This document shows positions 3,991-24,626 of a DNA stretch of 64,000 bases, in pieces. The position numbers and the translations under genes were made by a program. The stretch is from Candidatus Aldehydirespiratoraceae bacterium. GTDB lineage: Bacteria; Actinomycetota; Acidimicrobiia; Acidimicrobiales; Aldehydirespiratoraceae. The notes below the pieces were generated by a model. That model was not told the origin of the DNA, ran no database searches, and was given only the letters and a program-made list of their open reading frames with translations. The stretch is taken from positions 1,209,420 to 1,273,419 of the forward strand of contig OZ244898.1 in the NCBI GenBank assembly GCA_965221585.1, read 5' to 3'. Every line of letters begins with the position of its first letter. Position 1 is the first letter of the stretch.

Positions 3991-3992
3991 AT

Positions 3993-4061
3993 CTCGCCGG
4001 GCGTAGCCGGAGCCGCGGGGTGTTGTTGCGGTGTCTTTGCCGGGCGTAGCCGGAGCCGCGG
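3993..4061. repeat. Two copies of a dispersed GC-rich intergenic repeat (core GCCGGGCGTAGCCGGAGCCGCGG)
   Basis: CTCGCCGGGCGTAGCCGGAGCCGCGG at 3993-4018 recurs as TTTGCCGGGCGTAGCCGGAGCCGCGG at 4036-4061. Related copies lie at 24901-24999 and 25746-25776. Confidence 0.7.
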
Positions 4062-4102
4062 TCCCTGTCACCGGAACCGTGTACTGCATCTAGACTAAGA
4101 CC

Positions 4103-5011: not shown

Positions 5012-5020
5012 CCTCGGCCG

Positions 5021-5929
5021 ATGGCTGAGGCAGAGCGCGTCCAGGTCACAGTCGGCGGCCACCGGTTGTCGGTCAGCAACCTCGACAAGGTCCTGTATCC
5101 GTTGGTCGGGTTCACCAAGGCCCAGGTGATCGACTACTACGTCAGGGTCGCGCCGTGGCTGCTGCCACACATCGAGGATCGCGGCGTCACCCTGCGACGT
5201 TGGCCTGACGGGGTCACAGCGCAGTCCTTCTTCGAGAAGCGCTGTCCTTCTCATCGGCCCGGTTGGGTGAGCACCTGTACCGGTCCCGGCGACCGCCGGG
5301 GCGGCATCGACTACTGCCGACTGGACTCAGTCGCGGCGCTGGCTTGGACCGCGAATCTGGCAGCGCTTGAGATTCACTCACCTATGGCTCGCTGCGGCGA
5401 CATCGAGTCACCGTCAATGCTCGTGTTCGATCTCGACCCGGGTGATCCGGCGACGATCGTCGAGTGCTGCCAGGTGGCTCTGGAGATCCAGTCGGTGTTG
5501 AAGAGCGTGGATCTGGTGGCCTGCGCCAAGAGTTCCGGAAACAAGGGTCTGCAACTGTATGTGCCACTCAATTCACCGCACACGCATGCAGACGCGTCCG
5601 ATTTCGCCTTGGCTGTGGCGCAGGTCCTCGAACAGAGATCCCCGGATTCCATCTTGTCCAACATGAACCGCAAGCGCCGCGCCGGCAAGGTCTTCATCGA
5701 CTGGAGCCAGAACTCGCGCCACAAGACGACGATCGCCCCCTATTCCCTGCGTGGTGGTGACCGGCCGACGGTGTCGACTCCGCTGAGCTGGGACGAGGTT
5801 GCTGACGGCGCCGATGGCGAGCCGCTCATCTTTGAAGCCGCCGAGGTGCTCGAACGCGTCGAGTCTCTGGGTGATCTGTTTGCCGACACCATCACGGTGC
5901 AGCAGCAACTCCCGACCGCGGGCGCCTGA
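5021..5929 (+). CDS. ligD: Stand-alone LigD polymerase/primase (PolDom) NHEJ protein
   Basis: Motifs LSNLDKVLYP...TKAQVIDYY, FFEKR and LVFDLDPG...KSSGNKGLQLYVPL match the LigD primase-polymerase domain. No ligase domain is attached. Confidence 0.9.
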   Translation: MAEAERVQVTVGGHRLSVSNLDKVLYPLVGFTKAQVIDYYVRVAPWLLPHIEDRGVTLRRWPDGVTAQSFFEKRCPSHRPGWVSTCTGPGDRRGGIDYCRLDSVAALAWTANLAALEIHSPMARCGDIESPSMLVFDLDPGDPATIVECCQVALEIQSVLKSVDLVACAKSSGNKGLQLYVPLNSPHTHADASDFALAVAQVLEQRSPDSILSNMNRKRRAGKVFIDWSQNSRHKTTIAPYSLRGGDRPTVSTPLSWDEVADGADGEPLIFEAAEVLERVESLGDLFADTITVQQQLPTAGA

Positions 5930-5987
5930 CGCAGCCCGTCGGTCCGAGCCGTTGGTCTCGATCTCGTCGATGACGCCGGCCATGAAT

Positions 5988-6160
5988 CCGTGCGGGTCCG
6001 GGGCCTCGGCGAGAAAGCGGGTGGGAGCAGATCTTCCCAAGCAGCGGGATCGGTCTCCCTCAGAACCTCATGGGGGATGTAGGTGGAAGCGTCGCGGTCG
6101 TACTCGCTGAGACGTTCACGCACGACCGGTTCGAGGCCGGCCTTCACCACGGTCATCGGT
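5988..6160 (+). repeat. Left direct repeat: internally deleted remnant of a tyrosine-integrase gene
   Basis: 6034-6140 matches 18476-18582 with 4 mismatches in 107 bp by eye; 5988-6033 matches 18428-18475 more loosely. 6143-6159 (TTCACCACGGTCATCGG, encoding FTTVIG) matches 18716-18732. The left copy therefore lacks the 133 bp present in the right copy. Confidence 0.8.
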
Positions 6161-6351
6161 ATGAAACGTCAACCGACTGTTGTTGCTGTGTCGTTGCTAA
6201 TGCTGTCGCGGGAGTATCAGCTGATGACAGCGAGGTTAGGGGCCTTGGGGGGTTAGTTCATGCGTTGGAGTGTGATACTGAAGTTGCCTTCGCGGGTGGG
6301 TGTTGAACCAGGGCTGCGGTACCAGCATCGACGAGGTATTGATTGTGTCAG

Positions 6352-6372
6352 ATATTTCTGATATATTTCTGA
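6352..6372. promoter_or_regulatory. Tandem 10-bp direct repeat ATATTTCTGA x2 in an AT-rich patch upstream of abiEi (candidate operator/promoter)
   Basis: Copies lie at 6352-6361 and 6363-6372, about 45 nt upstream of the GTG start at 6417. AbiEi antitoxins are known autorepressors. Confidence 0.3.
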
Positions 6373-6416
6373 CTACACACCGTGTTCATCTCACCACACA
6401 CGAAGGGAGGGCAACC

Positions 6417-7040
6417 GTGGCATCTGTGGCGGACAAGATTACGCAGGCGGTTACCGAGCGCGGACCGGGGGCATGGGTATGCACCCCCGGGGACTTTCTG
6501 GGCCTGGGGAGCCGTGAGGCGGTCGACCAGGCACTGTCGCGCTTGACCAAGGCCGGCAAGCTGCGCCGGATCGGGCATGGCCTGTATGACATGCCGCGGT
6601 TCAGCAGCGTGCTGGGCCGGTCTGCGCCGGCCGACATGGACGCCGTCGTGGCGGCGTTGGCGAGGCGGGACGGCGTGCGGATCATGGCCGACGGGCTGGT
6701 AGCCGCTAATCGGCTGGGCCTCACCAATGCGGTGCCGGCAAGGGCCAGCTACCTCACCGACGGCGCCTCCAGGACGCTTCGGATCGACGGCAGAACCGTT
6801 CGGTTCCGACACGGCAGGCCCAGAATCATGCAGTGGGCCGGCAGGCCAGCAGCACCGGTGGTTCAGGCGCTGGACTGGCTCGGCCCCGACGCCGCCGCCG
6901 ATGCCCAGGTCGTCGAGATGCTCAGGCGCAGCCTTCCTGTTGACGTGAAGCACGATCTCAAGCAGAACATAAGCGACGTCCCCGGCTGGGCGGCACCGCT
7001 CGTGCGCAGCATCGTGGCCGATCAAAAAGCCGTCGCGTGA
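6417..7040 (+). CDS. abiEi: AbiEi-family type IV toxin-antitoxin antitoxin (wHTH)
   Basis: Has a wHTH-like region SREAVDQALSRLTKAGKLRRIGHGLY. It overlaps the downstream AbiEii gene by 4 nt (GTGA). GTG 6417 is preceded by GGGAGGG; the ORF is open from 6300. Confidence 0.75.
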   Translation: MASVADKITQAVTERGPGAWVCTPGDFLGLGSREAVDQALSRLTKAGKLRRIGHGLYDMPRFSSVLGRSAPADMDAVVAALARRDGVRIMADGLVAANRLGLTNAVPARASYLTDGASRTLRIDGRTVRFRHGRPRIMQWAGRPAAPVVQALDWLGPDAAADAQVVEMLRRSLPVDVKHDLKQNISDVPGWAAPLVRSIVADQKAVA

Positions 7041-8074
7041 ACGCAGCATTCGCAGCGTTCCTCGGCCTCGCTGAGCAAGACCGGCGCGACGTAATCGAAT
7101 CGGCCGCTGGCCGTCTTGACACGCTGCCCACCTATGTCGAAAAGGACCTCTGGGTCTGCGTCGTTCTGGACGCGATCTTCAACGGACTGCCCGATGGCCA
7201 CCCTCGCCTGCTCTTCAAGGGCGGAACCTCGCTGTCGAAGGTGTTCAGGCTGATCGACCGGTTCTCCGAAGACATCGATCTCGTCGTGTACCGAGACGAC
7301 TTGGGTTTCGGAGGAGATCGAGACCCGACCGCGGCGAGCGCCCTGTCGAAGAAAAAGCGAGCTGCGCTCTTCAAGACTCTCACCAGCGAGTGCAGCAGTT
7401 ACGTACTCGGGGACTTGCGGACAGCGTTGGCTGACGCGATCGGTGAGGCCAGCGAAGAATGCCTCATCGTCCCTAACACCGACGATCCGCAGTCGCTGTT
7501 GGTTGAGTACCCCACGCTGTACCCGGTCAGCGACACTGCCTACGTCGCGCCGAGCGTGAAGATCGAAGCCGGCGCGAGATCGGCTCTCGATCCCAACCAG
7601 TCCAGCGGCGTCACGGCATTCATTGACGACGAACTGCACAACGCCTCGCTCGACGTAGCCAACATCAGAGTGCTCTCGCCGCAGAGGACATACTGGGAAA
7701 AGCTGCTGATCCTGCACGGCGCCCACTGCGGGCACCGAGACCAAGGGCGAATCCCGGAGGACAGGAACCGGATCTCACGCCACTACTACGACGCCGCAAT
7801 GATCACGGCGACCGAGACGGGCGCGTCGGCCCTGTCAGACCTTGACCTTCTTGACGCAGTACGCAGCCACAACCTCATGGCCTTCAAGCAAGCATGGAAG
7901 CGCTTCGAAGAGGCCACCCCCGGTTCGGTGAAACTGGTGCCCCAACCCGGACTGCGCGAAGCAATCGAACGGGACTATGCGGCCATGCAGAGCATGATCC
8001 TCGGCGATGCTCCCGAATTCGAATGGATCAACGAACGACTGCAGGACGCCGAGAACGTCATCAATCACAGCTAG
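7037..8074 (+). CDS. abiEii: AbiEii/AbiGii-family nucleotidyltransferase toxin (DUF1814)
   Basis: The N-terminal region VEKDLWVCVVLDAIF...LLFKGGTSLSKVFRLIDRFSEDIDLVV is the characteristic AbiEii NTase core. Confidence 0.9.
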   Translation: MNAAFAAFLGLAEQDRRDVIESAAGRLDTLPTYVEKDLWVCVVLDAIFNGLPDGHPRLLFKGGTSLSKVFRLIDRFSEDIDLVVYRDDLGFGGDRDPTAASALSKKKRAALFKTLTSECSSYVLGDLRTALADAIGEASEECLIVPNTDDPQSLLVEYPTLYPVSDTAYVAPSVKIEAGARSALDPNQSSGVTAFIDDELHNASLDVANIRVLSPQRTYWEKLLILHGAHCGHRDQGRIPEDRNRISRHYYDAAMITATETGASALSDLDLLDAVRSHNLMAFKQAWKRFEEATPGSVKLVPQPGLREAIERDYAAMQSMILGDAPEFEWINERLQDAENVINHS

Positions 8075-8457
8075 CGGCCATCAGGCTGAACGAGCACACG
8101 GTGTGCCGGATCGGTGCGGGCGCCGGTGTCGGCGTCGAACGTGGCCCACAGCTGCAAGCAGTTAGGTTGTAGTTATCGAAGTTCCTTGATCATGTCCCCC
8201 AATTCGTCAAGCCTGTCCATCAGAATGCAGTGAGAAACGACAGTCCAGTACGTTTTGTTCGTCTCAGCGCCCCTCAACGCCTGCCCTCCGGGATGGCCTG
8301 GGTTAGTGAGCTGTGGCCGTGTCGGTCCGCCCCGCCTCAAGCGAATCGCACCCCCCTCTGGCAGCACTCTCAAATCCCTTTGATGGTCAGCGAAATTACA
8401 AGTACGTTGTTTCGGGCCCCTTGCTGGATGGGCAGCAGGCGGCGAAAGGGGTATGCG

Positions 8458-8622
8458 ATGGACAAGAAGCCAGGGATCCACACCGTCAAGCATGGCGGCG
8501 GTTGGGCCAACCGTCGTGCAGGGTCAGACCCGGTAAGCAAGGGCTACCCGACGAAGAAGGAATCTCAGCAGGCGGGCGCGTCTGCCTTGGTCAAAGGCGC
8601 TTTGGCGGCGGGGTGGACCTAG
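8458..8622 (+). CDS. Small DUF2188-like ORF, probably C-terminally truncated
   Basis: MDKKPGIHTVKHGGGWANRRAGSDPVSKGYPTKKESQQAG resembles the DUF2188 N-terminal half (hV.p..gGW.v...g..r....f.tk.eA...a). It lacks the usual C-terminal strand region. Confidence 0.3.
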   Translation: MDKKPGIHTVKHGGGWANRRAGSDPVSKGYPTKKESQQAGASALVKGALAAGWT

Positions 8623-8684
8623 TGGTGTGGAGGACGGCGAAATTGCCTCACTTCCCCACATCCCGTCTGGAGGGCTGAAGGCCC

Positions 8685-9677
8685 ATGACAGAAGCCCACG
8701 CAGAAGGCGGTGTTGATGACCATTCCGATAGTGGAGATGCCGGGTCTACGCCGTCGGACATTGACTCCTTGAACAGACAGTTCTACCAGGAGCACGGACC
8801 TCCGGGGTATCTTCACATGCGCCTCCGAACTCTCTGTGTGGTCGGTGGTGCCTACGAGCAGTTCAAGGGGATTCTCGCTGAGGGGATCGAGGTCGCCGAC
8901 TTCTCCATGAAGCTCAGCGCAGCAGATGGGGACGATGACGTTGCTATGAAGTCCGACATGGCGTTCAGGGAGCAGTACATGAGCATCGAGGCTCATCATC
9001 TCAAGCATCTGGCTGCGGAAACACTCATACGCATGTTCTTGGGCCATCGAGGGTCTCCGCACTGTCCCTGGTGGGAGATATCGAGAGAGACGAACTTCGC
9101 CACGTTCAAGGAGACAGTCAGCAGCCAAATTCTTCGGGTTGCTGGGCAGAGGTTGATGTCCGATGTGGGCGATGTGTTTCTTGGCCTGCCGACGGATCCT
9201 TCATCTCTGTCTGAAGAACAGTTGGATGTTGTTGACAATCTCGCCAGCTTCTTGCGGGTTTTTGCGAGAGAGTGGTTAGACGAGTCAAAGTCCTACAATG
9301 CCACCAAACATGGGTTGACCGCAGTTCCCTGCGACACCGCTCTGGCCGTCGGCACACACGACAGCAGAATGCTCGCAGTGGGAAGCGGCAAGAGTCTGGC
9401 CCATTTGACGCATAAGCGGCGGCAGAACGGTGAAAGAGAATGGCATCTGACGACTCGGTGGATTCGCTTAGAGCAAGCTTTAGTGGCGACTGATTTGATT
9501 TGCCGAATGCTCGCATCTTTGTGGAGTGTTGCGCGAGCGAGATACGGCATTACGAATCAATACCTTCCGTTCATGCTGCCTTCATCAGCTTTCTCCACAA
9601 AAGAGCTTCAACAGATGGGAGCTAGAGGTGCCAGAGAGATGTCGTGGTACCAGTTCACCGAGATAAATCGACATTGA
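8685..9677 (+). CDS. Hypothetical protein (330 aa), island cargo
   Basis: Protein-like composition with lower GC. Contains HHLKHLAAETLIRMF and SYNATKHGL motifs. I recognise no family. Confidence 0.6.
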   Translation: MTEAHAEGGVDDHSDSGDAGSTPSDIDSLNRQFYQEHGPPGYLHMRLRTLCVVGGAYEQFKGILAEGIEVADFSMKLSAADGDDDVAMKSDMAFREQYMSIEAHHLKHLAAETLIRMFLGHRGSPHCPWWEISRETNFATFKETVSSQILRVAGQRLMSDVGDVFLGLPTDPSSLSEEQLDVVDNLASFLRVFAREWLDESKSYNATKHGLTAVPCDTALAVGTHDSRMLAVGSGKSLAHLTHKRRQNGEREWHLTTRWIRLEQALVATDLICRMLASLWSVARARYGITNQYLPFMLPSSAFSTKELQQMGARGAREMSWYQFTEINRH

Positions 9678-10148
9678 GACATCTGGAGCTCACCGCCTCC
9701 CAGTCGCTTGTTTCACCTGCTCAGCCTCCGATTAGCAGGTTGGTTTGTCGCGATTGCGCGTCATCTCCTGCTTGCAGGGCTATGGAAATCAACGTCTGTT
9801 GGGGACCAGTCGATCTCAACAAACCGGAGGTGCCCGACTGTGTACCGCTGCCACGGGGACCCCTCATTATGACTTCGTGCTCGATCCCGGCTCGTCTGAA
9901 GACGACTGGAGTGCTCTAGAGCCGCCACCCGTGGCGTCTACCCGACGGCTGTTGCGACCATGCGCATGGAACTTGTCGAGGGCCGCTAAAGCCGTGATCT
10001 CGTCATTGTTAGGTCACCGTGGTAGAAGCCCGCGTGCACCTCGCGACCACAAGTCGGCGGTTCACCTGCCACCAATGACGGGCGGGCCACAGCGGCACGG
10101 AGCCGGGCGTGGGGTTCGTTAGGCGGCAGTCAATTCGCTGACGAATCG

Positions 10149-11624
10149 CTATGTCACGTCGAGGTTCAGCGGGTAGGACTCGATTCGTCCGGCGTGCCAT
10201 GAGTAGAACGCCTGTCGGAAGTCGAACTCGGTGCGTCCGGCTGTCTGGCACTTTTTCTTGATCAGGTCGATGATCGCGATCTTGTCGTTGTCGGTCGTGT
10301 CGATGCCGAAGATGATGCCCTTGAGCGCTGAGAAGTCGTAGGTCAGCGTGCGGGCTGCGTTCGGCAGCGTGTCGTCGAGCAGTGTGAAGTTCACGAGCCG
10401 ATGTTCCCGCTCGAACTCCCACTCTTTGGTCTTGGTGCAGATGTCGCGCCAGTATTCGGACCACAGAGCGTCTCGCCATGCATTGATGTCGGCGTCGGGT
10501 GCCATGTGCGCGGCTCTCGACGAAGTGTTGCCCTCGGCGTCGGTGAACCAGACGGCTCGCGTCGAGGTTTCTGGCAGTCTGCTGATCCGATCGAAGAAAT
10601 CGACCTCTTCGAGAGCCTCCACGTACTGCACCTTTTCGAAACGGAACTTCCGTGACGAACGCGAGCGGCGGATCATGGGTTCGTTGTTGCGGCCCCCCAC
10701 AACATCCTCGTGCAAGATAAGTCCGGGTCCGTGCTCGTCGTTGTCCACATCGAAGATGAGACACGCACCGGTGTGCCCGTCCGCATAGCTGCCCCATTGC
10801 GTCGTGTTGCTGTAGCTCTCGGTGAAGGATGCGGCGTACCAGACAGGTCCGACAGCGCGGGACAGCTCCCGCACGTAGGCGTGGGGGAAGTCGGCAAAGA
10901 AGAAGCTGCGCTTTTGCTGAGGCACGCTGTCGATAGGACGAAACGTCGTCATCTTCGACAAGACTCGACGCCTGACCGTCATCTGCTGCATCGCTTCGAA
11001 GCCCAGCTCGATGAAGCTGACATCACCCTCGAGCTGATCGAAGAGGTCGAATATGCGCGGGAACACCTCAGCCGGTTTTGAGGGCCGCTCCAGCAACGCT
11101 TGCGAAGGGTCTTCGGAACCACGTGCGACGTGTGCACGTCCGATCGCCGCGACAGCGGAAAGGTGCAGGAACGTCAGGTAACCCTCGACCTCTGCACTGC
11201 GCGCCTTGTGTCCGAGCGCTTCCAGTCGGGATGCGACTCGTGCGAGATCGAACTGCTGATTGAGGTCGCTCCAGATCTCAGACAAGAGGTCCGCGTAGGG
11301 TTCAGATGGCGGATCGTCCCAGCGCATGTTGATCGGGATGTCGCCTGGACCTACAGGATCGTCCTGCTCCCTCATCCGCAGCAGCAAGTAGATGTGGTGC
11401 AGGCAGTTCACGTAATGGCGGAACAGATTGGTCCAGACGATCCTATCTCCCTGCCACACAAGATCCCGGATCACCTCCGCCGGGTCGTTCAGTTTGGACG
11501 CCTCAGCAAAGTAGATGGTCTGGCCTTGCAGTTCACCGGCGTCGTTAGGGCAGTCAGAGCCGAGCAGGCGGTTGATCGAGCGGAATCGGTAGATCTCATC
11601 CATGCTGAACAGTCTGTGCGTCAA
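10149..11624 (-). CDS. DUF2971-like protein (491 aa)
   Basis: The N-terminus IYRFRSINRLLG...ELQGQTIYFAEASKLNDPAE fits the DUF2971 signature (YhY.s...l..il.n..l.fs....lNDP.E). Confidence 0.7.
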   Translation of the reverse strand: MTHRLFSMDEIYRFRSINRLLGSDCPNDAGELQGQTIYFAEASKLNDPAEVIRDLVWQGDRIVWTNLFRHYVNCLHHIYLLLRMREQDDPVGPGDIPINMRWDDPPSEPYADLLSEIWSDLNQQFDLARVASRLEALGHKARSAEVEGYLTFLHLSAVAAIGRAHVARGSEDPSQALLERPSKPAEVFPRIFDLFDQLEGDVSFIELGFEAMQQMTVRRRVLSKMTTFRPIDSVPQQKRSFFFADFPHAYVRELSRAVGPVWYAASFTESYSNTTQWGSYADGHTGACLIFDVDNDEHGPGLILHEDVVGGRNNEPMIRRSRSSRKFRFEKVQYVEALEEVDFFDRISRLPETSTRAVWFTDAEGNTSSRAAHMAPDADINAWRDALWSEYWRDICTKTKEWEFEREHRLVNFTLLDDTLPNAARTLTYDFSALKGIIFGIDTTDNDKIAIIDLIKKKCQTAGRTEFDFRQAFYSWHAGRIESYPLNLDVT

Positions 11625-12585
11625 TTATGTCGGATGGTGCAATCGAAGCGATCGATGTGACCTTCGGGCCCGTCAGCACCATCGCGGTATGACCGATCGC
11701 GGGCACGCGAACGGTCGTCGGGGTGTCCTAGCTCTGAAACTGACCGAGGTTGTTGACGACTACCACGACCATCTGCCGCGTGTGCGTTGCCGGCCAGAAG
11801 ACTGCCCTTTGCGAATCGATGTCGAGCTGCTTCAAGCCAAGATTCAGTCGTGTCAGGGGAAGATCGGGACTACCGTCCCAGCGTCGCGGGCGCGACCCAC
11901 CCGTACTTTATGACGCCGCTAAGAAAGTATCCGAGGCGGGCACCGTTGCTGTCGATCCATTGTCGGACCGTCGCAATCCTGCCATATACGTATCAAAGAC
12001 AAGGTCGAACGCTTCGGCGGCGACACCGGAGTCGAGGAATCCGTCATGAACTGCGGCGGGCCCGAGGTTGCGGCTGTTCTGACTGTGTCGGCGGTTAGAA
12101 AGGCTCAGTTGGGCCGTGACCACAGCGACTTCAGGTCCATAGAACACACGACTTCGGTTCCAGACTTGACCCGTCGGACAACGCCCTCCCGCCGCTGGGC
12201 AAGCTACGTGAGTTCTTCCGCTGCCCACTGAACTCCCGAACCCCCACGTTGTAGGAAACCCCTCCCGAGCGATCAAGAAGCCAACAGAACTAGGGACAGC
12301 GAACCGTTCTCACCGAACTCCGGCAGACCGCGACCGACACCTGCTCGGACGTTCACGTTTGCGGCTCATCGCACTCCCATGCCTTGTCCTGAACGTCAAC
12401 AGAACAGCGTTTGGGTTGTGTCGTCGTGGGAACAGCTGTCGAAGTGGGCTTCGATATCGGTTCGAGGTTTGGCGGTGTCGGCGCTGGTCGCTGTGTTTCT
12501 GTAACCGCTTCGAGTCTTCGCGGTGATGTGTGGGGTTGCTCAGCCCGACACTTTCACCTCGCCGAATTAATGTCAGGACGACATT

Positions 12586-13455
12586 TTGGGCGGGCACAAT
12601 GATGATGTGACCCCAGAAGACTTCTTTGAGGACGGTGTCGTCGTTGAGGACGGTTACCCCGTGCAACAACGGGTACTCAACCACGATCTGCTGGAACGCA
12701 TACGCGCCAACACCTACACCGACCGGCCTAATGTTGAGGTCGCGACCGCGTTGCTGCGTTTGGCGCATGACGAGCTTTTGGCCTTCGGCACGGACCGTTC
12801 TCAGCGTACCGACGACGAGGACATGCGGCTCATTCTGAGAACGGCTCGGCGGCTCGCTAAACGGTTGGAGGTCGCCTTTCAACTGCCGTTCAGCGACTAT
12901 GGCTCGTTTCACGCCTACTGGGAGGAGAACAACTGTTATGGCAGTTGGGCTGCTCGTCGTGCCGTACTGAGAAACTTGTTTGAGCCAGTGTATCGCGACC
13001 TTGAGGATCGTGAAGACGATGAGCTTGAGGCAAGCCTCGCCCAACCGATTACAAGCCATTCTGGTACGGGATGGCCAGAAGTCGATATAGCGATCAAGGA
13101 TCTACGGCGGCACTTCCGAGATGCCCGCAGCCCTCTGGATTACCGAAACATCGGAAACGACTGCGATGCCGTTCTCGAACGGCTCAGCGTGACCTTGTTC
13201 GACGCGAAACTTCATCTCAAAGAGGGCGAACAAGAGCCATCCGTCTCACAAACGAAGAACCGGATCGGCAGGTTCGTAGAAGTCGCTGCTCCCGACGGGC
13301 GCACGAATGAGAAGATCAGAAAGCTCGCCAACGCAACGATTGATCTGGCCCAGGCCGTCAAACACAACCAAGAGGGGACTCGGAGGAATGCCGGGATCGC
13401 CGCAGACTCAGTGATTCTGCTTGCGAGTCTGCTCCGCTGGTTTGCTGAGGAATGA
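12586..13455 (+). CDS. Hypothetical protein (289 aa), island cargo
   Basis: Has protein-like composition, unlike the Arg/Pro-rich antisense ORF 12310-13059. I recognise no family with confidence. Confidence 0.6.
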   Translation: MGGHNDDVTPEDFFEDGVVVEDGYPVQQRVLNHDLLERIRANTYTDRPNVEVATALLRLAHDELLAFGTDRSQRTDDEDMRLILRTARRLAKRLEVAFQLPFSDYGSFHAYWEENNCYGSWAARRAVLRNLFEPVYRDLEDREDDELEASLAQPITSHSGTGWPEVDIAIKDLRRHFRDARSPLDYRNIGNDCDAVLERLSVTLFDAKLHLKEGEQEPSVSQTKNRIGRFVEVAAPDGRTNEKIRKLANATIDLAQAVKHNQEGTRRNAGIAADSVILLASLLRWFAEE

Positions 13456-13934
13456 GTGTCGGTCGTGTCGACGTCACCCGGCGACGAGCAAACTGCTGTT
13501 GAAGCGATCGGGTGTTGGGGGTAACTCGGCAGGTCGTGAGACGGACGGCGGTCGTAAACCGCTCTTGAAACGCGTGACAGAACGGATCGGGGCTCGCCAA
13601 CCTCCGTCGGAGTCGCCGGCCGCCCAGTACGCTGGCGGAAGCTTCCATGAAGCTAGGGATAGGCGGGCGACTTGCTCCAACGGCAACCTGTTGGACCGTA
13701 GACACTGTTACCCGGGACTGATGCCGAGAATACGTGCGATGCTTGCGGCTGGACGCTTCCGGCGCGATCGCTGGGTGGACTGGTCAGTCGGTGAGGTGCG
13801 AGACCTGCGTGTTCCCTGAGACCACCTGCGTGTCCAAGACTCGATGCCACATAGCCCCGTCCCCATCGAGAACCTCACACCCTGCGAACACCAAATGCCC
13901 TGTCGTCGCATGACTCGGTTCACGGCAGACTGAG

Positions 13935-15193
13935 TTGGTGTTCGACAACGACCGTCACCTCTCAGAGGGCTTCTTCGCCAATCTCGGTACTCGACTACGG
14001 TCCTATCTGACAGGAAATCGCCAGGTAAAGAAGTACTTGAAGATGCATCGTCGCGCGACCGAGGAGTATCTCGCGCATGCAATTGCTCGACCTCGTGAGA
14101 TACTCAGCGGAGAGTCAGGTCTGCGCGCTGGCTTCGAAGCACGCTTGGAAGCCAGGTGGGGCCATGGTCTTGATTTGGCCGATCTCGTGGTCCATGAGGG
14201 CTTCGAGTCTGGTAGGTGGTCGAACGACCTTCTGCAGCAGCAAACTTCACCTCATAAGGACCGGAAGTTCGAAGCGCTCGTAAGGCTCCACGGGAAAGCT
14301 ATAATGACCACCCGCGAGGTTTTGCTCCTGCTCCGAAGCGGGTACTCATCGGGCGGGCTAGCTCGCTGGCGGACGGTACACGAGGTCTGGGTTGTTTTTT
14401 CGCTGTTGGCAGACGCCGACTCGGAGTTGAGCCGGCGTTATCTCGCTCACGACGCCATCGAGGCCAGCAAAGGACAGGAAGACTACGAACAGACTTGGGA
14501 GGCACTTGGATTCGAACCACCCGACTGGACATCAGCTGAACGCGAAAGGACCCGAACAGCTTTGTCCGACGAGTACGGTGACAGCTTCTTGCGCGACTAC
14601 GGGTGGGCGGCACCGCTGTTCAATGGACGCGCACCAAGGTTCAACAGTTGCAGGAACGAGCCGAGTTAGACCACTGGAGAGGCTTCTACCGCATGGCATC
14701 GCATGGTACCCATGCCAACCCAACGGGAATCACGTGGAACATCCAGGACCCCGACATGACAGACCGAGTTTGGGCAGGGCCATCCAACGCAGGACTAGTC
14801 GACCCGGCACAGTGCTCGCTCATTGCGCTCACAAATATCACAGGCCGCCTGATCGCTTACACCATCGACCAACTTGCTGAACCAGACGAAATTGAAACCC
14901 TTGAACACCAGAGCTTCGCGCTCGCGCAACTGCAAAAACTCCCGGCCCTAATGGAGCACGCGATCCAGACACTCGCCGCAGTGCACGCTCAGCAAGAAAG
15001 CGAGGAGCAGGCCAAAGCCGAACTTGTAAATCGAGTAGTGGAGTTCCTGCAAGCGACAGCACCCATGAAGGCGGAGGATCTGTCAGCGCGACTCGACATT
15101 GACCTTCAGGATCTCACGGAAGCACTTGACGAGGCAGTCTCGCGCGGTTTGTTGATCCAAGAGACCCACTATCGCACCGAGGTTGCCGGGTAA
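13935..15193 (+). pseudogene. DUF5677-like gene split by a frameshift near 14620-14650
   Basis: ORF 13935-14669 and ORF 14603-15193 overlap in different frames. Joined, they read ...DYGWAAPLFNGRAPRF / QQLQERAELDHWRGFYRMASHGTHANP. The DUF5677 assignment is from memory of the family pattern (medium certainty). Confidence 0.55.
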
Positions 15194-15346
15194 GCGAACA
15201 GAGAACAAACTCATCAGACAACTCTCAGCCTGCACGACCAGTCTCGGTAGGCAAACCACCGCGACAGCCTTATCAGCAGAGACCGGGCGAAGGCATTTCC
15301 GGTGCCAAACGGTCAACTGAAGGCACTGTGCTCTTCGCTCGCCTTG

Positions 15347-18139
15347 TCAGCCTGCGGGTCTCGAGGCGGGTTTGCGCCTGCGCTGCCTCGCCGGCTTCTC
15401 GGCCAGCTGTCCTGTCATCGTGATGTAGCGGTCGAACAGGACTCTGAGGCGTGCTTGGTCCTGTTCGAGGTTGGAGCGGGGTGCGAAGGCAGCGTCGACT
15501 GCTTTGTCGAGCGCGTCGTGGGAGCCGACGAGGTTCTTCGGCATGGACAGGGGGTTGTAGAGGTCGGCGAGGGTCGCTTCGGGAAACTCCGCGCGGGCGT
15601 CGAGCACCGCTTTGGCGCGGCCCTCGATGCGCTGTTGCTGCTGAGCGGTCAGGTTCGGGAACGGGAACGTGTTGTATACGCTGCCCGGCGAGATCCTGGG
15701 GTCGCTTTTGAGGCGGCCGCCGACGGTGCGGGTCCACAGGGTGAACATCGCCGATTGGAGCACTCCGAACAGCCACAGCGGGGCGCTTTCTATGGTGTAG
15801 AGCTGGTTGGTGGCGATGTCGTCGGCGCCGAGGTAGGCCATGGGGGCGACCCGGTAGTTCTCGCTGCTCACTTCGGGGACGGCGAGGTATCCGCCGGCGG
15901 GCTGCTTGTTGTTCCAGAACAGCGCCGGTGTGGCAGCCGTTTCCTGTGTCTGGGCGCTGTCCGAGGACAAGCGGTGGTCGCGGACCTTGGCGAGCCGCTC
16001 TGTCAGCTCTGGCCATTGTCTGAGCTCGGTGGGCGTGGCTTCTGCGAGCCACAAGCACCAGCGCTCCACGCCTTGGAGGAGTTCTTTGGACCCGTACAGG
16101 CTGCGGACGAACTTCTTTCTGAGGTCTTTTGGCAGAGCGCTGCGTTCTTTGGGGGTGAGTATTAGGTTGCCGCCGTCATTCGGTTTGCTCCCGATGCTCA
16201 GCTCGGGGACGCCTCCGAGCGGGGTGCTCCGTTTCGCCACGCCGACCATCGGGCTGTCGACGAGGTAGACGTTGATCTCCCGGGCGGACTCCTCGATGCC
16301 TTCGGCGTGCAGATCCGGGTAGAAGTACAGCCTGCGCTTCCGTCCGGGAGTTTTGGCGAAGCCCACGATCACGACGTGCACGTGGGCTCTGCCGCGGGCT
16401 TCGCTGGTCCACGCGAATGTGCGGTGGGCGAATTCGATGGTCGCTCCGCGCCGCTCCAACAGAGAGTGCAGTGCCGACGCCTGCTCACCCTGGGTGATCG
16501 AGTTAGTGGACACGAAAGCACAGCGGGTGCGCGGGCCGATGTAGTCGACAGCCTTCGCGTACCAGCCCAGCACGTAGTCGATCCGCTTGGGGGTGCCTGT
16601 GGGCATGACCCGCTCCATGTCGGCTTTCTGCTCGTCTGTTCGGAGCCGGAACCCGACAAAGGGCGGGTTGCCGTACACGTAGTCGGCCCGGTCGGATGGC
16701 AGGAGGCTGTTCCAGTCTGTGTCCAGCGCGTTGGCGATCAAGATGTGTGGGCTGGACTGGATCGGGAACCGGACGAAGTATCGGCCGAACTCGGACGACG
16801 CCTCCCGGTTGGCGATGTGGTCGGCAAGGTAGAGCGCCGTGGAAGCGATGCGAGCCGGGAACTCCTCGCTCTCGATGCCGTAGAACTGCGAAACGTTCAC
16901 CTTCAACATCAGATCCAAGTCCATCACTCGCTGGCCAGGCTGCTCACCTGCCGTGCCCCGGCGAGTGGCGCGCTTTTTGGAGATCGCCTTGAGAGTCTCG
17001 GTTTCCAGCCGGCGTAACTCCCGGTAGGCGATTACGAGGAAGTTCCCGCATCCCGCCGCCGGGTCGAAGAACGTCAAAGAGGCGAGTTTCGCGTGGAACG
17101 CCTCCAGCTTCGGCAGGCTGTCGGCCCGGGCCAGTTCCTTTTCGAGGTCCTCGAGGAACAGAGGGCGGATGACCCGCATGATGTTCTCCTCGGTCGTGTA
17201 GTGGGCGCCGATCTCGCGGCGCTCCGCCGGGGTCATCACCTCTTGGAACAAAGAGCCGAAGATCGCCGGTGAGATCGCCGCCCAGTTGAACCTGCACACC
17301 TCTAGCAGCGCCTTTCGGGCCGCGGAAGTGCAGTGAGCTATCGGTATCTGCTCGGCGAACAGGTCGCCGTTGATGTAGGCGAAATGCGCCAGGTGGTCGT
17401 CGATGGCGGGGCTGCGCTGGTCTGCTGGTTTGTCGAGCTCTTGGAACAGCGTGGCGATGCGGGCGCCGAGGTCCTTGCCGTCTTGGCGGCTCTGCGCCAC
17501 GTAGGAGGCGAACAGGCCGCTTTCCCACACTGCTGTGCTGTCCGCAAAGACGCAGAACAACACCCTCGTCAACCACACACGCCTTGCGTGATCGTCGTAG
17601 CTGGCGCGTTCTAGCTCATCGTGGAGGTCGCGCATCAGCATCGTCGCGGCGAGATTCAGCTCCTCCGTCGAGGCAAAGTCGGCCTTTTGGTCGTGCCCGG
17701 CCAACCACCAGAACCGCTCGACGTTGTCGGGAAGCTCGCTGAGGGAGAACACGCCCTCGGCGCGGGTATCGTAGTCGTGGAACTTGAAGCGGGCGAAGTC
17801 GCAAGCCACAGCCATTCTCGGGGCCTCCTCGTCGGGGATCGAAGGCAGATAGTCGAGCAGCTGCCTCATGGCTCCCTCCAAGTCCTTGCCCGCCGACTTG
17901 TGCTCCACCGCCAGTTTCTGGGGCACGAACAGGTCTATCCGCCCTTTCTCTCCCGTCGACAGCCGCTCCGCGTGCTTCTCGTACTGGCCCACCAACTTGC
18001 GGTCGATGTCGAAGATGCCGAAGAACTCGTCCCAGAATGAGTGCGACTCCGCCCGCTCGCTCTCGGCGCCCTCCCATCTTTTGGAGAATCGTGCGGCCGC
18101 ATCTCGGATCTCATCCTTCGTCACCGCAACAGCCTCCAT
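15347..18139 (-). CDS. MmeI-family Type IIL (IIG) restriction-modification enzyme, with nuclease and N6-adenine methyltransferase in one polypeptide
   Basis: Appears collinear with MmeI as I recall its sequence; no alignment was run. Shared blocks include FSKRWEGA, the PD-ExK-like IDLF...LAVEHKSAGKDL, and LFCVFADSTAVWE. Further blocks are ISPAIFGSLFQEVM, GAHYTTEENI, FFDPAAGCGNFLV, YGNPPFVG, AFVSTNSITQGEQ and VGGRLKSDPRISPGSVYNTFPFP. Confidence 0.92.
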   Translation of the reverse strand: MEAVAVTKDEIRDAAARFSKRWEGAESERAESHSFWDEFFGIFDIDRKLVGQYEKHAERLSTGEKGRIDLFVPQKLAVEHKSAGKDLEGAMRQLLDYLPSIPDEEAPRMAVACDFARFKFHDYDTRAEGVFSLSELPDNVERFWWLAGHDQKADFASTEELNLAATMLMRDLHDELERASYDDHARRVWLTRVLFCVFADSTAVWESGLFASYVAQSRQDGKDLGARIATLFQELDKPADQRSPAIDDHLAHFAYINGDLFAEQIPIAHCTSAARKALLEVCRFNWAAISPAIFGSLFQEVMTPAERREIGAHYTTEENIMRVIRPLFLEDLEKELARADSLPKLEAFHAKLASLTFFDPAAGCGNFLVIAYRELRRLETETLKAISKKRATRRGTAGEQPGQRVMDLDLMLKVNVSQFYGIESEEFPARIASTALYLADHIANREASSEFGRYFVRFPIQSSPHILIANALDTDWNSLLPSDRADYVYGNPPFVGFRLRTDEQKADMERVMPTGTPKRIDYVLGWYAKAVDYIGPRTRCAFVSTNSITQGEQASALHSLLERRGATIEFAHRTFAWTSEARGRAHVHVVIVGFAKTPGRKRRLYFYPDLHAEGIEESAREINVYLVDSPMVGVAKRSTPLGGVPELSIGSKPNDGGNLILTPKERSALPKDLRKKFVRSLYGSKELLQGVERWCLWLAEATPTELRQWPELTERLAKVRDHRLSSDSAQTQETAATPALFWNNKQPAGGYLAVPEVSSENYRVAPMAYLGADDIATNQLYTIESAPLWLFGVLQSAMFTLWTRTVGGRLKSDPRISPGSVYNTFPFPNLTAQQQQRIEGRAKAVLDARAEFPEATLADLYNPLSMPKNLVGSHDALDKAVDAAFAPRSNLEQDQARLRVLFDRYITMTGQLAEKPARQRRRKPASRPAG

Positions 18140-18427
18140 GGCCGACGATTATCTCACATCGGGAGCAGAGGCGCGTATGCCGCAGACCGCAACCCGAGGA
18201 TCCGACCAGGACCGGCTGTCGGCTCGGGCCAACACCCGACTCCACGAATCAGAAACAGCGTTACGTGCGAAACGAGCGGCCGGGACGCTGGCGGTGGTTT
18301 CTGACGGTGTCGGCGATGTCGGCGCCGACCGCCGCACGATCCGCAGCAACTACGACCGCGACGCCCGGATAGGGCACCGTTCAGCAACCAGCAAACAAAA
18401 TGCCGGGTTCGGGTTCGGCTACGACCT

Positions 18428-18582
18428 CCGTGCGTGTCCGGGGCACCGGCGGGAAAGTGAGTGGTGAGCAGGTGTTTCCCAAGCAGCGGGATCGGTCTCC
18501 CTCAGAACCTCGTGGGGGACGTAGGTGGAAGCGTCACGGTCGTATTCGCTGAGACGTTCACGCACGACCGGTTCGAGGCCGG
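18428..18582 (+). repeat. Right direct repeat (partner of 5988-6140)
   Basis: See the left-repeat entry. This copy is the 5' part of the integrase pseudogene. Confidence 0.8.
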
Positions 18583-19078
18583 TGGCAGCCGCGAGCAGCT
18601 CAGCGGTCTGGCGCGCGAGCCGCATCGGGCTGCTGTAGGGTGTCCGCTGGCACCGCGAGCTGCAGGTTGAGGCGGCCGACCTCGTAGGGGAGGCGTGGCG
18701 CAAAACGGCTACTTCTTCACCACGGTCATCGGAACCCACACTCATCTCGACAACGTTGGCAAGTGCTTCACCGAACTCGTGCGAGCCTCCAACGTCCCGT
18801 ACTTCACGATGCACGGCCTTCGACACACCCACGCCACGCACCTACTCTCGATGGGCCAGAACCACAGGATGGTCAGCGCACGCCTTGGCCATCCCGACAT
18901 CGTCTTCACGCTCTAGGTCTACGGCCACGTCTTGCCCGGTCACCAGCGAGAAGTCGCGGAGGCCGCTGCGGGGCTGGTGGACTGGGCTGCCGACATCTAC
19001 TGGAGATCCACTGGAATAGCCCTCCAGTCCAGTAAGGTTCCAGTATGTCCAAGACAACAGACACCAGCAGCGTCCTGA
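18428..19078 (+). pseudogene. Tyrosine recombinase/integrase pseudogene (N-terminally truncated, frameshifted, in-frame TAG)
   Basis: GYFFTTVIGTH...FTMHGLRHTHATHLLSMGQNHRMVSARLGHPDIVFTL-TAG(18914-18916)-VYGHVLPG holds the catalytic HxLRHT / LGH / Y-GH boxes. The upstream part (RWHRELQVEAADLVGEAW) is in another frame. Confidence 0.8.
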
Positions 19079-19159
19079 AGCAAGCGCTCGCGGCTGTCGA
19101 CGAGGCGGGGTTGCCTGACAATCTCCCGCGAAGCCGGGTTCCAAGCAGCCATCGGGCTA

Positions 19160-19651: not shown

Positions 19652-19652
19652 C

Positions 19653-20872: not shown

Positions 20873-21064
20873 GTCATCGCAGCATTCGCGAAGCCGACTT
20901 TCGAACGGTTTCGGCGCATGCGCCACGCTGCCCAGTATTTCGATCCCGACGATCCTGGGGTGGCCCTGGAAGACGCTCAGTGGGCGATAGCGACAGCAAA
21001 GGCTGCGATCGGGGGGATTCGCAGCTTCAATGAGCGGGGAGATTTGGCTCTGTTTGTTCTCTAG
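20873..21064 (+). pseudogene. Possible C-terminal HEPN fragment (contains an Rx4-6H-like RFRRMRH motif)
   Basis: This frame reads VIAAFAKPTFERFRRMRHAAQYFDPDDPGVALEDAQWAIATAKAAIGGIRSFNERGDLALFVL*. The only canonical in-frame start is the internal ATG at 20918 (48 codons). About 60 aa of a normal HEPN N-terminus are missing. It overlaps the convergent NTase gene stop (CTAG). Confidence 0.25.
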
Positions 21065-21636
21065 ATCTCCACAAGCGGTCGTTGTGTGACTGTGGCGTGG
21101 AAGTTGCCGGTCCCAACGGCGAGCCAAGCAGCGGGCCGTATGGTGGCCTGAACGGGTCGCCCGAGTCTCTGCTCGGCGGTGGAGAGCGCCTCGTAGAGGG
21201 CATCACGGTCTGGGGAGCCGAGGAGCAGCAAGTCGATGTCTCCGACAGGACGCTCGTTGTCATCGCCTGTGAGACTCGCGGCCCACGACCCGAATATGTA
21301 GGCAGATTCAATTCCGTCCACGGGGGACAGAGCCTCGGCGAGGACTTGCGGCGGTCCGAACGCCTTGATGAGCACCTCTGCGAGACCCTTGAAGTACGGG
21401 CTCTCCATATTGGCCCGCACAAGCCTGGTGTTGCCGATCTTGCGGCTCTCCACCAGACCCGCCGATTCGGCACGCTCGATCTCGCGGTGGACGGAACTCA
21501 CTGGCATACTCAACTGGGCAGCGAGATCGGTCAGGCTGGACTCGATATCTGTATTGCCGAGGACCAACGTGAGCAATTCAGCCTGTTGCCGCGATCGAAA
21601 GATCGGCAGCAGACTCGGCGTTGATCCTTTTTCCAT
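21061..21636 (-). CDS. wHTH (ArsR/MarR-like) fused to a minimal nucleotidyltransferase (MNT) domain
   Basis: The N-terminal part RSRQQAELLTLVL...LTDLAAQLSMPVSSVHREIERAESAGLVESRKIGNTRL is wHTH. The C-terminal part AYIFGSWAA...GDIDLLLLG is the GS-x-DxD NTase motif. Confidence 0.8.
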   Translation of the reverse strand: MEKGSTPSLLPIFRSRQQAELLTLVLGNTDIESSLTDLAAQLSMPVSSVHREIERAESAGLVESRKIGNTRLVRANMESPYFKGLAEVLIKAFGPPQVLAEALSPVDGIESAYIFGSWAASLTGDDNERPVGDIDLLLLGSPDRDALYEALSTAEQRLGRPVQATIRPAAWLAVGTGNFHATVTQRPLVEI

Positions 21637-21641
21637 AAATA

Positions 21642-22851: not shown

Positions 22852-23056
22852 GGCGTGCCAAGCAACCGTCGCAACCGACCCCAAAGGGAGCGAGCCGATA
22901 CCAACACCAAGAGCACTTCCTCTGCGCATGGGGGCCAACTATATACGAGGCATCCCTCATGTTATGCAGGCGGACCCTCCCGTTTCCAGGGTGGTGACGT
23001 TTCCAGGGCGTTCAGCGGGCGATGGCGGCCCGGCGGGTGCCACGAAGGCGGCGGGG

Positions 23057-24298: not shown

Positions 24299-24552
24299 CT
24301 CCTAGTGAACTCACCAACATCGCCGTGCTGGCCAAAAGCTCAAGACATGAGTGTAACCTCAGTTTCGTCACCCTGGCAACTGTGCAGCGGCCGGGATCGC
24401 CGCGCGCCAACACCCGTGCGACGCTCGCTGACACCTTCAAAGGTGGCGTGAAACGGGCCAAACCCGGTGCAAACCGATCGAAACCACCCGGACACGGCTA
24501 CGGCCAGCTAAATGGCTAACCCAAACCGAAAAAAGTGGCTGACACCCTGTTG

Positions 24553-24626
24553 TACACCCCCTGGGACTCGAACCCAGAACCTGCGGATTAAGAGTCCGTT
24601 GCTCTACCAAATTGAGCTAGAGGTGC
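24553..24626 (-). tRNA. tRNA-Lys (anticodon CTT)
   Basis: Hand-folded cloverleaf: GCACCTC/TA/GCTC..GAGC/ACGGA-CTCTTAA-TCCGC/AGGTT/CTGGG-TTCGAGT-CCCAG/GGGGTGT-A. No encoded CCA. Confidence 0.9.

Follow-up and report, generated by a model that had tools for sequence, protein, structure and literature searches.

What are the solitary genes that sit between two recognizable anti-phage systems in the metagenome-assembled genome of an uncultured bacterium of the Acidimicrobiales, and what kind of DNA brought them together? The locus lies in a stretch of 64,000 nucleotides (nt) from a Candidatus Aldehydirespiratoraceae bacterium (assembly GCA_965221585.1, contig OZ244898.1), here called the window, to which all positions below refer unless another locus is named. 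A first-pass annotation had described positions 6166-18427 as a 12-kilobase (kb) defense island of low guanine-plus-cytosine (GC) content, in which an AbiEi/AbiEii pair and an MmeI-type restriction-modification (R-M) enzyme flank several uncharacterized genes, among them open reading frames (ORFs) of 330 and 289 amino acids (aa) that we call orphan-330 and orphan-289. We think it likely that these genes belong to a larger, 18.6-kb variable island that lacks an integrase, lies between the Ku-LigD gene pair and a tRNA-Lys gene, and was put together piecemeal from single-gene cassettes which would jointly provide layered, modular anti-phage immunity. Three other explanations are weighed below where the evidence bears on them, and we rank each of them as less likely than this one.

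The limits of the island were drawn from the loci of relatives. A scan of one genome per species with the LigD primase-polymerase that adjoins the island gave 80 loci, the closest of which belongs to a Candidatus Aldehydirespiratoraceae metagenome-assembled genome (L011; about 80% nucleotide identity). This locus is collinear with the window over positions 1-5961 and resumes at 24543, with its tRNA-Lys/His/Arg cluster following directly after LigD. Because LigD is joined straight to tRNA-Lys in L011, we place the inserted block of the window at about 5944-24538 (18.6 kb), so that the 12 kb flagged in the first-pass annotation were drawn too narrowly and, judged by synteny, correspond to the left two-thirds of the island. 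All of the island proteins tested, from AbiE through the 413-aa ORF at the right-hand side (Table 1), were absent from the 80 LigD loci. The spacer of about 18 nt that separates the LigD stop codon from tRNA-Lys in L011 is found, imperfectly, at both window junctions. Profile searches of every ORF in 5944-24538 recognized no integrase, recombinase or transposase domain. Of the features expected of a tRNA island, neither a recombinase beside the tRNA nor direct repeats of the tRNA 3' end were found, and the only repeat at the junctions is the imperfect spacer repeat of about 15-18 nt.

The boundaries given in the first-pass annotation do coincide with a repeat, but the edges of the inserted DNA lie elsewhere. 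A direct repeat of about 150 nt (5988-6140 and 18427-18582), with a 107-nt core that is 96% identical (the right-hand core at 18476-18582), stands at either end of the flagged segment together with an exact 18-nt match (6142-6159 to 18715-18732), and both arms lie within fragments of a histidine-phosphatase gene. Given that the repeat has a single gene of origin and brackets exactly this segment, positions 6166-18427 could be read as a 12.3-kb integrative element that entered a histidine-phosphatase gene, with the repeats as attL and attR. We consider this highly improbable. Both fragments, which lie on the minus strand, cover one and the same 5' half of the gene and thus are not the two halves of a split target, and 131 nt are missing from the interior of the left copy. 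The histidine-phosphatase gene is absent from the locus in relatives and is therefore itself part of the inserted DNA. Further, the 12.3-kb segment neither contains nor adjoins an integrase, recombinase or transposase, and genes inside it have sharp homology limits of their own elsewhere.

Those limits speak for our preferred reading of the island as an assembly of separate cassettes. The orphan-289 cassette recurs over 1272 nt at 91.7% identity in three other loci (L005-L007), of which the L005 copy lies on a 3.0-Mb contig, and in L005 and L006 it adjoins an OLD-TOPRIM/UvrD pair that is Gabija-like. The homology of the MmeI-type gene to an unrelated contig (L094) ends 20 nt and 87 nt beyond the gene, and its neighbors on that contig are a Schlafen-AlbA_2 gene and a PIN-TPR-GreABC gene. 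Since the orphan-289 and MmeI-type genes recur at 92-95% identity in unrelated contexts, the island is a mosaic built from single-gene cassettes. A search of both ends of the orphan-289 cassette for terminal inverted repeats gave nothing convincing.

Another relative, L180, which shares 88-93% nucleotide identity, carries only an insertion sequence (IS), a 139-aa gene and a segment with a PDC-M05A gene at the same tRNA-Lys. Immediately after these comes the 284-aa gene, which in the window precedes Ku. This different content at the same site points to a hypervariable hotspot. A 23-nt element, GCCGGGCGTAGCCGGAGCCGCGG, occurs at 3996-4018 and 4039-4061, between the 284-aa gene and Ku, and again at 24905-24927, just right of tRNA-Arg, where zero copies would be expected by chance. 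By these positions the element frames the variable segment as a whole, and L180 has multiple copies of it beside the tRNA cluster (about 2591-5480). It may be a substrate for rearrangements resembling repetitive extragenic palindromes (REP-like). Like other tRNA-adjacent islands and defense hotspots, the island abuts a tRNA 3' end, has short repeats at its junctions, varies in content among relatives and is rich in defense genes; it differs from them in having no integrase, in its apparent gene-by-gene turnover and in the 23-nt REP-like repeat that flanks a larger variable segment. The Ku-LigD pair itself (4103-5929) is variable, being present in the window and in L011 and absent from the L180 locus.

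We took an ORF listing of the window and ran profile searches against the Pfam, PADLOC and NCBIfam libraries. Every gene named in the first-pass annotation was recovered where it had been placed, namely AbiEi/AbiEii, an intact MmeI-type enzyme, the 330-aa and 289-aa orphans, a DUF2971 gene and a frameshifted DUF5677 gene. The lower GC content that it reported holds for the core at 8075-15346, which has 58.4% GC where the window averages 62.35% (standard deviation of 1-kb bins, 2.3%), and 7 of the 10 lowest-GC 1-kb bins of the window fall in 8-15 kb; the AbiE genes (63.0%) and the MmeI-type gene (63.9%) are, however, host-like, so that the low GC is restricted to 8.1-15.3 kb. The same division is seen in GC at third codon positions (GC3), with values of 0.61-0.64 for orphan-289, orphan-330 and the DUF5677 gene and of 0.77-0.84 for the other genes. 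The mixed orientation and long non-coding gaps that had been described are also present, with about 75% of the flagged region coding, about 25% non-coding, gaps of 150-980 nt and genes on both strands, but the gap before the 330-aa ORF contains a 54-aa DUF2188 gene. An Rfam scan of 5.5-25.5 kb recognized three tRNAs and nothing else, and the only tandem repeat is an 11-mer upstream of abiEi.

The two known systems that bracket the orphans are complete, with full model matches and intact motifs. The stop codon of abiEi and the start codon of abiEii overlap by 4 nt (GTGA, 7037-7040) on the same strand, forming a coupled bicistronic operon, and the pair consists of an AbiEi regulator and an AbiEii (DUF1814) protein with the G[GS]...DxD motif. 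It resembles AbiE, a type IV toxin-antitoxin and abortive infection (Abi) system, in this coupling, in its full-length model matches, in its nucleotidyltransferase motifs and in an AT-rich, repeat-bearing promoter region. The repeats upstream of the window abiEi differ, being an 11-nt direct tandem, whereas the AbiEi operators in Streptococcus agalactiae are inverted repeats. A promoter-like site overlapping this tandem repeat is a candidate AbiEi operator, although it consists of consensus matches only and such sites are no commoner in the region than expected by chance.

In the MmeI-type enzyme, all five MmeI domains (PF20464, PF20465, PF20473, PF20466 and PF20467) score above their cut-offs, giving the five-domain architecture of the family. 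The motifs IDLF (residue 68), VEHK (78), DPAAGCGNF (359) and NPPF (491) are intact, and we take them to represent the D...ExK nuclease, motif I (xDPxxGxGxF) and motif IV (NPPF/Y). As in the MmeI family, one polypeptide combines an N-terminal nuclease, a helical spacer, a gamma-class N6-adenine methyltransferase, a target recognition domain and a C-terminal domain. The window gene travels as a stand-alone cassette, with its 95%-identical copy in a different context.

Between these systems, orphan-289 has no match to any Pfam, NCBIfam or PADLOC model and no sequence-profile relative in the PDB. Its ORF is uninterrupted and full-length and aligns end to end with a large family (at least 235 clusters at 90% identity, and no fewer than 1230 representative clusters with a threshold of E <= 1e-3), whose members come from Acidimicrobiia, Chloroflexota, Nocardia and Sinomonas and from 20 actinobacterial plasmids. 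It is a real gene under purifying selection, with ratios of nonsynonymous to synonymous substitution rates (dN/dS) of 0.22-0.28 against three homologs and of 0.24 against the 92%-identical copy. The 317 nt upstream of the gene (12290-12606) are 91.5% identical to L005, and as this divergence of 8.5% is lower than the synonymous divergence of the gene (dS = 0.20), the region is better conserved than synonymous sites. It contains no ORF and its RNA fold is no more stable than that of shuffled sequences (z = -1.2); it may be a constrained promoter or leader.

The N-terminal domain of orphan-289 is shared with proteins that carry known suicide effectors. Residues 28-144 are 55% identical (e-value = 2e-40) to the N-terminus of a protein bearing a TIR_2 domain (P0319; P0321 likewise has TIR_2), and residues 31-143 are 43% identical (e-value = 3e-23) to the N-terminus of a protein bearing Abi_C, the HEPN domain of the AbiJ family (P0364). 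Profile e-values for these three proteins range from 6.7e-44 to 4.3e-33. AbiJ N-terminal domains have been described as variable sensor or inhibitor domains that are joined to alternative suicide effectors (Anantharaman et al. 2013, PMC3710099), and the swapping of the orphan-289 N-terminal domain onto TIR_2 and Abi_C matches this pattern. By analogy, orphan-289 is a candidate AbiJ-style sensor-effector protein, which it also resembles in being a single gene of about 280 aa with homologs in R-M loci. Its C-terminal domain contains an invariant K259-H260 pair along with several Arg and Asp residues. The AlphaFold2 model (AF2; predicted local distance difference test, pLDDT = 92.5) shows an N-terminal beta-hairpin followed by helices, and Foldseek found no match to it in the PDB at E <= 0.001 and none among viral structures.

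In L008-L010 and L091, homologs of orphan-289 are found among or next to hsdM, hsdS and hsdR, and the neighborhood also includes Mrr, Dcm, Fic and RelA/SpoT genes. In addition, a serine recombinase stands directly upstream of the homolog on P. equi pRErm46 and within 0.7-4.5 kb of the homolog in four metagenome loci, and it has been suggested that such an enzyme directly upstream marks defense genes (PMC12632615). We rejected the notion that the gene always sits inside type I R-M operons: it is true of the ENA lineages L008-L010 and L091 but of only 2 of the 43 metagenome loci of at least 6 kb.

Orphan-330 belongs to a rare family, with 99 clusters in 5.8 billion, none of which has a Pfam domain of its own. 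Its members come mostly from one ENA metagenome series that includes Candidatus Poriferisodalis genomes. The window ORF is full-length and uninterrupted and aligns end to end with the family. No sequence-profile match was found in the PDB, Foldseek returned none at E <= 0.001 against the same database, a Pfam search at E <= 1 with 45 members revealed nothing recurrent, and hhalign found orphan-330 and orphan-289 to be unrelated.

One family member (P0195) consists of an AbiTii domain (e-value = 1.3e-20) followed by an orphan-330 domain at 50% identity, and forms of 448 aa have a hydrophobic C-terminal extension that is probably membrane-spanning. Elsewhere, AbiTii domains are fused to C-terminal HEPN effectors of the c2405 and Ymh families (PMC3710099). 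The orphan-330 domain of P0195 occupies the same C-terminal effector position, and the family has conserved His residues and an R-x4-H motif in 43 of 45 members, by analogy making orphan-330 a candidate Abi-like effector. It differs from the AbiTii-HEPN fusions in having no sequence or fold link to HEPN, and its model is a helical bundle plus beta-sheet rather than a four-helix HEPN fold.

All five independent contexts of orphan-330 contain transposases and/or defense-type genes. These include HsdM with a group II intron and IS21; ThsB_TIR with PLDc-SNF2 and AAA_14; DUF4145; and GmrSD_C with OLD-TOPRIM and a long DUF2971 gene. Three plasmids of Rhodococcus also carry the gene, in the vicinity of FtsK/SpoIIIE and IS21 genes. 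One 172-kb metagenome contig (L004) carries two diverged orphan-330 paralogs, of 321 aa (2952-3917 of that contig) and 449 aa (8001-9350, with the C-terminal extension), which lie 4 kb apart among IS elements, a ThsB_TIR gene and a PLDc-SNF2 helicase gene.

The first-pass annotation had held that none of the intervening genes could be assigned to a known system and that they were the best candidates in the window for new immunity functions. This stands for orphan-289 and orphan-330, which match nothing in the libraries and have Abi-like architectures. It is wrong for the DUF2971 gene: the PADLOC run that had been suggested matched AbiE, REase_MTase_IIG and PDC-S31, the last of these, a single-gene candidate of PADLOC, to the DUF2971 protein, and left both orphans without a match. 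The Pfam domain is that of Aristaios, a 316-aa DUF2971 protein from a Lactococcus plasmid that has been tested as a single-gene system, gives phage resistance of the abortive-infection type and was modelled as an ADP-ribosyltransferase (PMC11381338). A separate survey (PMC12522546) groups DUF2971 with the DarT-like DNA ADP-ribosyltransferases and notes a conserved Tyr as well as an ExE motif. An EWEFE sequence at residue 401 of the window protein fits the ExE motif, and by analogy this protein is predicted to be a DarT-like ADP-ribosyltransferase. It resembles Aristaios, PDC-S31 and the DarT-like proteins in being a solitary gene with a DUF2971 domain and an ExE-type motif in a defense and mobile context.

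The window DUF2971 protein is one of a long-form subfamily. Its matches to DUF2971 and PDC-S31 fall within residues of about 265-462, and the N-terminal extension of about 260 aa before them has no assignment. The long form (about 470-490 aa) is conserved end to end on plasmids of Zymomonas, Arcobacter, Clostridium and others, where the homologs are annotated as DUF2971. The Zymomonas copy is flanked by IS5, a tyrosine recombinase and a type I R-M system, and a long ortholog with 39% identity lies 3 kb from an orphan-330 homolog in L093. The GC3 of the window gene (0.77) is host-like.

The DUF5677 gene is no immunity candidate in this genome, as its sequence reads as a pseudogene. A frameshift near 14630-14645, outside any homopolymer, leaves a stop after residue 244 of the first ORF. 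Elsewhere, when candidates associated with serine recombinases were tested in Enterococcus, a DUF5677 ORF was one of them, but the five ORFs reported active did not include it (PMC12632615).

A homolog of the 54-aa DUF2188 gene (74.6% nucleotide identity over 201 nt) lies at about 11040-11192 of L001, some 2 kb from the orphan-330 homolog of that locus, and the pairing is absent from the other four orphan-330 contexts. DUF2188 plus orphan-330 and DUF2971 plus orphan-330 were each considered as two-gene systems and set aside, as either pair occurs in just one other locus and at variable distance.

Taken together, two complete known systems and homologs that lie near R-M, Gabija-like, OLD/TOPRIM, TIR and transposase genes bear out the view that the region is rich in defense genes and that the genes between the two systems are solitary and foreign-looking. 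Several observations nevertheless weigh against our interpretation. The junction repeat of about 18 nt is short and imperfect. The PF11185 match of the DUF2971 protein is barely above threshold, and at 491 aa the protein is 175 aa longer than Aristaios and so not of comparable size. The orphan-330 model has moderate confidence (pLDDT = 72.5), and the AbiTii fusion is a single cluster on a 2.6-kb contig. The Arg of the RIExHHLKH motif, which provides the R-x4-H of the family, is replaced by Ser in the window copy and in its 88%-identical relative, and of the roughly 100 columns that are highly conserved in the family, the window copy departs at 9, R100S among them; the window copy of orphan-289 likewise departs from its family at 9 of about 100.

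The AbiJ comparison for orphan-289 is incomplete as well. Its N-terminal domain matches none of the Pfam models AbiJ_NTD3-5, and a Pfam search at E <= 1 with 44 family members revealed no recurrent family and no match to Abi_C. Its C-terminal domain lacks the Rx4-6H motif, with no Arg 4-6 residues upstream of K259-H260 and with R174-R175-H176 contiguous, and hhalign found no similarity between this domain and the Abi_C of P0364 (probability 0.08%). The sole fold hint is a local Foldseek match to 1wwp_A (probability 0.80, target TM score 0.56, E = 1.6), which we take to be a HEPN-family structure.

Context is similarly divided. Among the 43 metagenome loci mentioned above only 2 have type I R-M neighbors, nothing defense-like surrounds the homolog in a Sinomonas isolate (L092), and plasmid homologs adjoin DnaB-like helicase and SSB genes (Rhodococcus), a ParA-like ATPase and an orphan DNA methylase (Arthrobacter) or resolvase, relaxase and MobC genes (P. 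equi). In a PADLOC scan of neighbors, 150 neighbor proteins matched 295 models, including strong matches to type II, III and IIG methyltransferases, and 140 controls matched 106 (generic ATPases and helicases), a crude comparison only, as counts are per hidden Markov model and not per protein. The guilt by association on which the first-pass annotation relied is accordingly of moderate weight: the R-M, Gabija-like and TIR neighbors favor it, and the blank L092 context and the replication and partition genes beside the plasmid homologs do not.

These contexts would suit another explanation, in which the orphans are cargo of mobile elements that serves plasmid establishment, maintenance or anti-restriction and has gathered where foreign DNA accumulates. 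The plasmid neighborhoods of both orphans and the Sinomonas context would all be expected of such cargo, and a position within R-M loci suits an R-M regulator or anti-restriction factor equally well. We regard this as unlikely, however. TIR and Abi_C/HEPN domains, onto which the N-terminal domain of orphan-289 has been swapped, are suicide effectors of a typical kind, and the chromosomal homologs between hsdM and hsdS or hsdR are placed like the R-M-embedded Abi-type proteins of the HEPN survey (PMC3710099). The upstream serine recombinase is a proposed marker of defense genes (PMC12632615). Further, no homolog of orphan-289 or orphan-330 was found in 50,697 phage genomes and 2.9 million viral contigs (IMG/VR), collections in which anti-defense genes are common, and this absence of both families argues against a phage-borne anti-defense role.

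It could also be supposed that the intervening genes are decaying, functionless remnants and that only AbiE and the MmeI-type enzyme are maintained. Parts of the island are indeed decaying, as seen in the DUF5677 frameshift, the two histidine-phosphatase fragments and a shortened 139-aa gene, and the low GC3 of the orphans and the DUF5677 gene, the non-coding quarter of the region and the off-consensus residues of both orphans would fit this picture. Yet both orphans are uninterrupted and full-length relative to their families, orphan-289 has a dN/dS of 0.24 and an upstream region better conserved than synonymous sites, and the DUF2971 gene has host-like GC3 and is full-length relative to its plasmid homologs. 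We therefore hold general decay to be quite improbable, and return to the modular defense island as the preferred reading.

The remaining genes of the 18.6-kb block lie to the right of the MmeI-type gene. The coupled 163-aa and 281-aa ORFs, with high, host-like GC3, may be a further uncharacterized module. No partner was recognized in the window for the PDC-M05A gene, and its convergent 139-aa neighbor is cut to 73 codons; when remnants of the genes that neighbor the homologs in L093 and L005 were sought in the window, this shortened gene was the only one found. The 405-aa and 413-aa ORFs are absent from L011 and L180, and their hydrophobic N-termini suggest products that are possibly secreted or membrane-anchored.

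Two genes outside the island may also be mentioned. The 574-aa ORF at 125-1849 (plus strand) joins a LipB/LplA-type lipoyl/octanoyl transferase catalytic domain to a LipA radical-SAM lipoyl synthase, and thereby fuses enzymes that act one after the other in making lipoate. To the right of the tRNA cluster, a 98-aa ORF at 25048-25344 (minus strand), which is 96% identical to an L180 gene with a weak RHH_1 match, may be a solitary antitoxin or regulator.

Table 1. Features of the island and its junctions, with positions in the window and the evidence for each.
Feature	Position	Strand	Evidence and remarks
Left junction repeat CTGACGCAGCCCGTCGGT	5926..5943		Short imperfect direct repeat, equals L011 spacer between LigD stop and tRNA-Lys; left edge of island
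Histidine-phosphatase fragment, left copy	5988..6159	-	131-nt internal deletion; one arm of the ~150-nt direct repeat
Promoter-like site TTGATT-17-TATATT	6339..6372	+	Overlaps 11-nt tandem repeat ATATTTCTGAT x1.9, upstream of abiEi
abiEi, antitoxin and transcriptional regulator	6417..7040 (longest ORF from 6300)	+	PADLOC AbiEi 1.8e-57 over residues 42-242; Pfam DUF6088 8.7e-30
abiEii, nucleotidyltransferase toxin	7037..8074	+	PF08843 7.4e-35; PADLOC AbiEii 5.1e-91; KGGTSLSK at 61, EDIDL at 78
DUF2188 gene, 54 aa	8458..8622	+	PF09954 4.4e-6; PADLOC PDC-S16 1.1e-5; 62 nt upstream of orphan-330
Orphan-330, 330 aa	8685..9677	+	Invariant HHLKH, CPW and NATKHG motifs; no Pfam, PADLOC or NCBIfam match
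Long-form DUF2971 protein, 491 aa	10149..11624	-	PF11185 24.3 bits (cut-off 22); PADLOC PDC-S31 9.4e-18
Orphan-289 cassette	12290..13561		Gene and its flanks (upstream 317 nt, downstream 106 nt); L005 9684-10951 matches at 91.7% nucleotide identity, sharp ends
Orphan-289	12607..13455 (282 aa from GTG; longest ORF 289 aa from 12586)	+	N-terminal domain ~28-144 and C-terminal helical domain
DUF5677 pseudogene (from sequence)	13935..15193	+	ORFs 13935-14669 and 14603-15193 cover PF18928 positions 3-124 and 118-159
MmeI cassette	15327..18226		94.9% nucleotide identity over 2900 nt to unrelated contig L094
MmeI-family Type IIL/IIG R-M enzyme, 930 aa	15347..18139	-	Five MmeI Pfam domains; PADLOC REase_MTase_IIG 1011 bits, residues 6-911
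Truncated histidine-phosphatase, right copy	18419..18841	-	PF00300 1.2e-7; segment 18427-18582 is the second repeat arm
Coupled ORFs, 163 aa and 281 aa	19160..20498	+	Adjacent stop and start; high, host-like GC3; no Pfam, PADLOC or NCBIfam match
Remnant of 139-aa gene, C-terminal 73 aa	20843..21061	+	tblastn 90% identity, query residues 67-139 only; intact beside the PDC-M05A gene in L180
Winged helix-turn-helix and nucleotidyltransferase-like protein	21061..21636	-	PADLOC PDC-M05A (multi-gene candidate) 1.4e-47; same segment by tRNA-Lys in L180
Two ORFs, 405 aa and 413 aa, hydrophobic N-termini	21721..24298	-	405-aa: weak Cache-like matches; 413-aa: none; not integrases
Right junction repeat CTGACACCCTGTTGTAC	24539..24553		Abuts tRNA-Lys 3' end; junction alignment with L011
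tRNA-Lys (CTT)	24552..24626	-	3' end faces island; first of Lys/His/Arg tRNA cluster

The data show directly which genes and domains are present, where the island ends, that cassettes have moved, that orphan-289 is under purifying selection and that domains have been swapped. The biochemical activities and phage-resistance phenotypes that we infer for these genes would amount to several independent layers of immunity. The modules themselves are independent, as their mixed orientation, their separate cassette histories and the lack of conserved pairing indicate. The MmeI-type enzyme, as a single polypeptide, would methylate host sites and cut unmodified incoming DNA at a distance. In AbiE, the AbiEii nucleotidyltransferase toxin would be held in check by the AbiEi antitoxin-repressor and would arrest growth on infection. 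The DUF2971 protein would act as a single-gene abortive-infection toxin through DNA ADP-ribosylation, as proposed for Aristaios. In orphan-289, the N-terminal domain (about residues 28-144) would sense a phage cue or be restrained by it, and the C-terminal helical domain (about residues 150-289, with K259-H260) would serve as the toxic effector in place of TIR or Abi_C/HEPN. For orphan-330 the case is weaker; it may provide an effector-type His-rich domain to which one relative adds an AbiTii sensor and some add a hydrophobic, probably membrane-spanning tail.

A further and more tentative proposal, possible though still doubtful, is that orphan-289 and orphan-330 found two undescribed single-gene Abi families. 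Orphan-289 would then represent a sensor that is swapped among TIR, AbiJ-type HEPN and a new helical toxin domain with a K-H catalytic pair, orphan-330 would be a His-rich effector of new fold that may be linked to AbiTii or to a membrane-spanning tail, and both would spread as autonomous cassettes of about 1.3 kb, with no dedicated recombinase, into R-M operons and hotspots beside tRNA genes.

Much of this locus is already familiar. Defense islands beside tRNA genes are routine, and AbiE, MmeI-type enzymes and DUF2971 proteins are catalogued. What makes it useful is a pair of conserved families that have no Pfam, NCBIfam or PADLOC model and no fold match in the PDB. On its sequence features, then, the locus appears to be an ordinary kind of defense hotspot with two credible new Abi-like candidates. 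Domain swaps with TIR and HEPN of the kind seen in orphan-289 have earlier predicted real abortive-infection proteins, and by this signature orphan-289 qualifies as a good candidate for a new Abi protein encoded by a solitary gene. If this is true, orphan-289 would enlarge the repertoire by one sensor and one toxin domain, both new, from the little-studied uncultured Acidimicrobiales. The apparent gene-by-gene turnover of cassettes at an integrase-less hotspot bears on how defense islands assemble.

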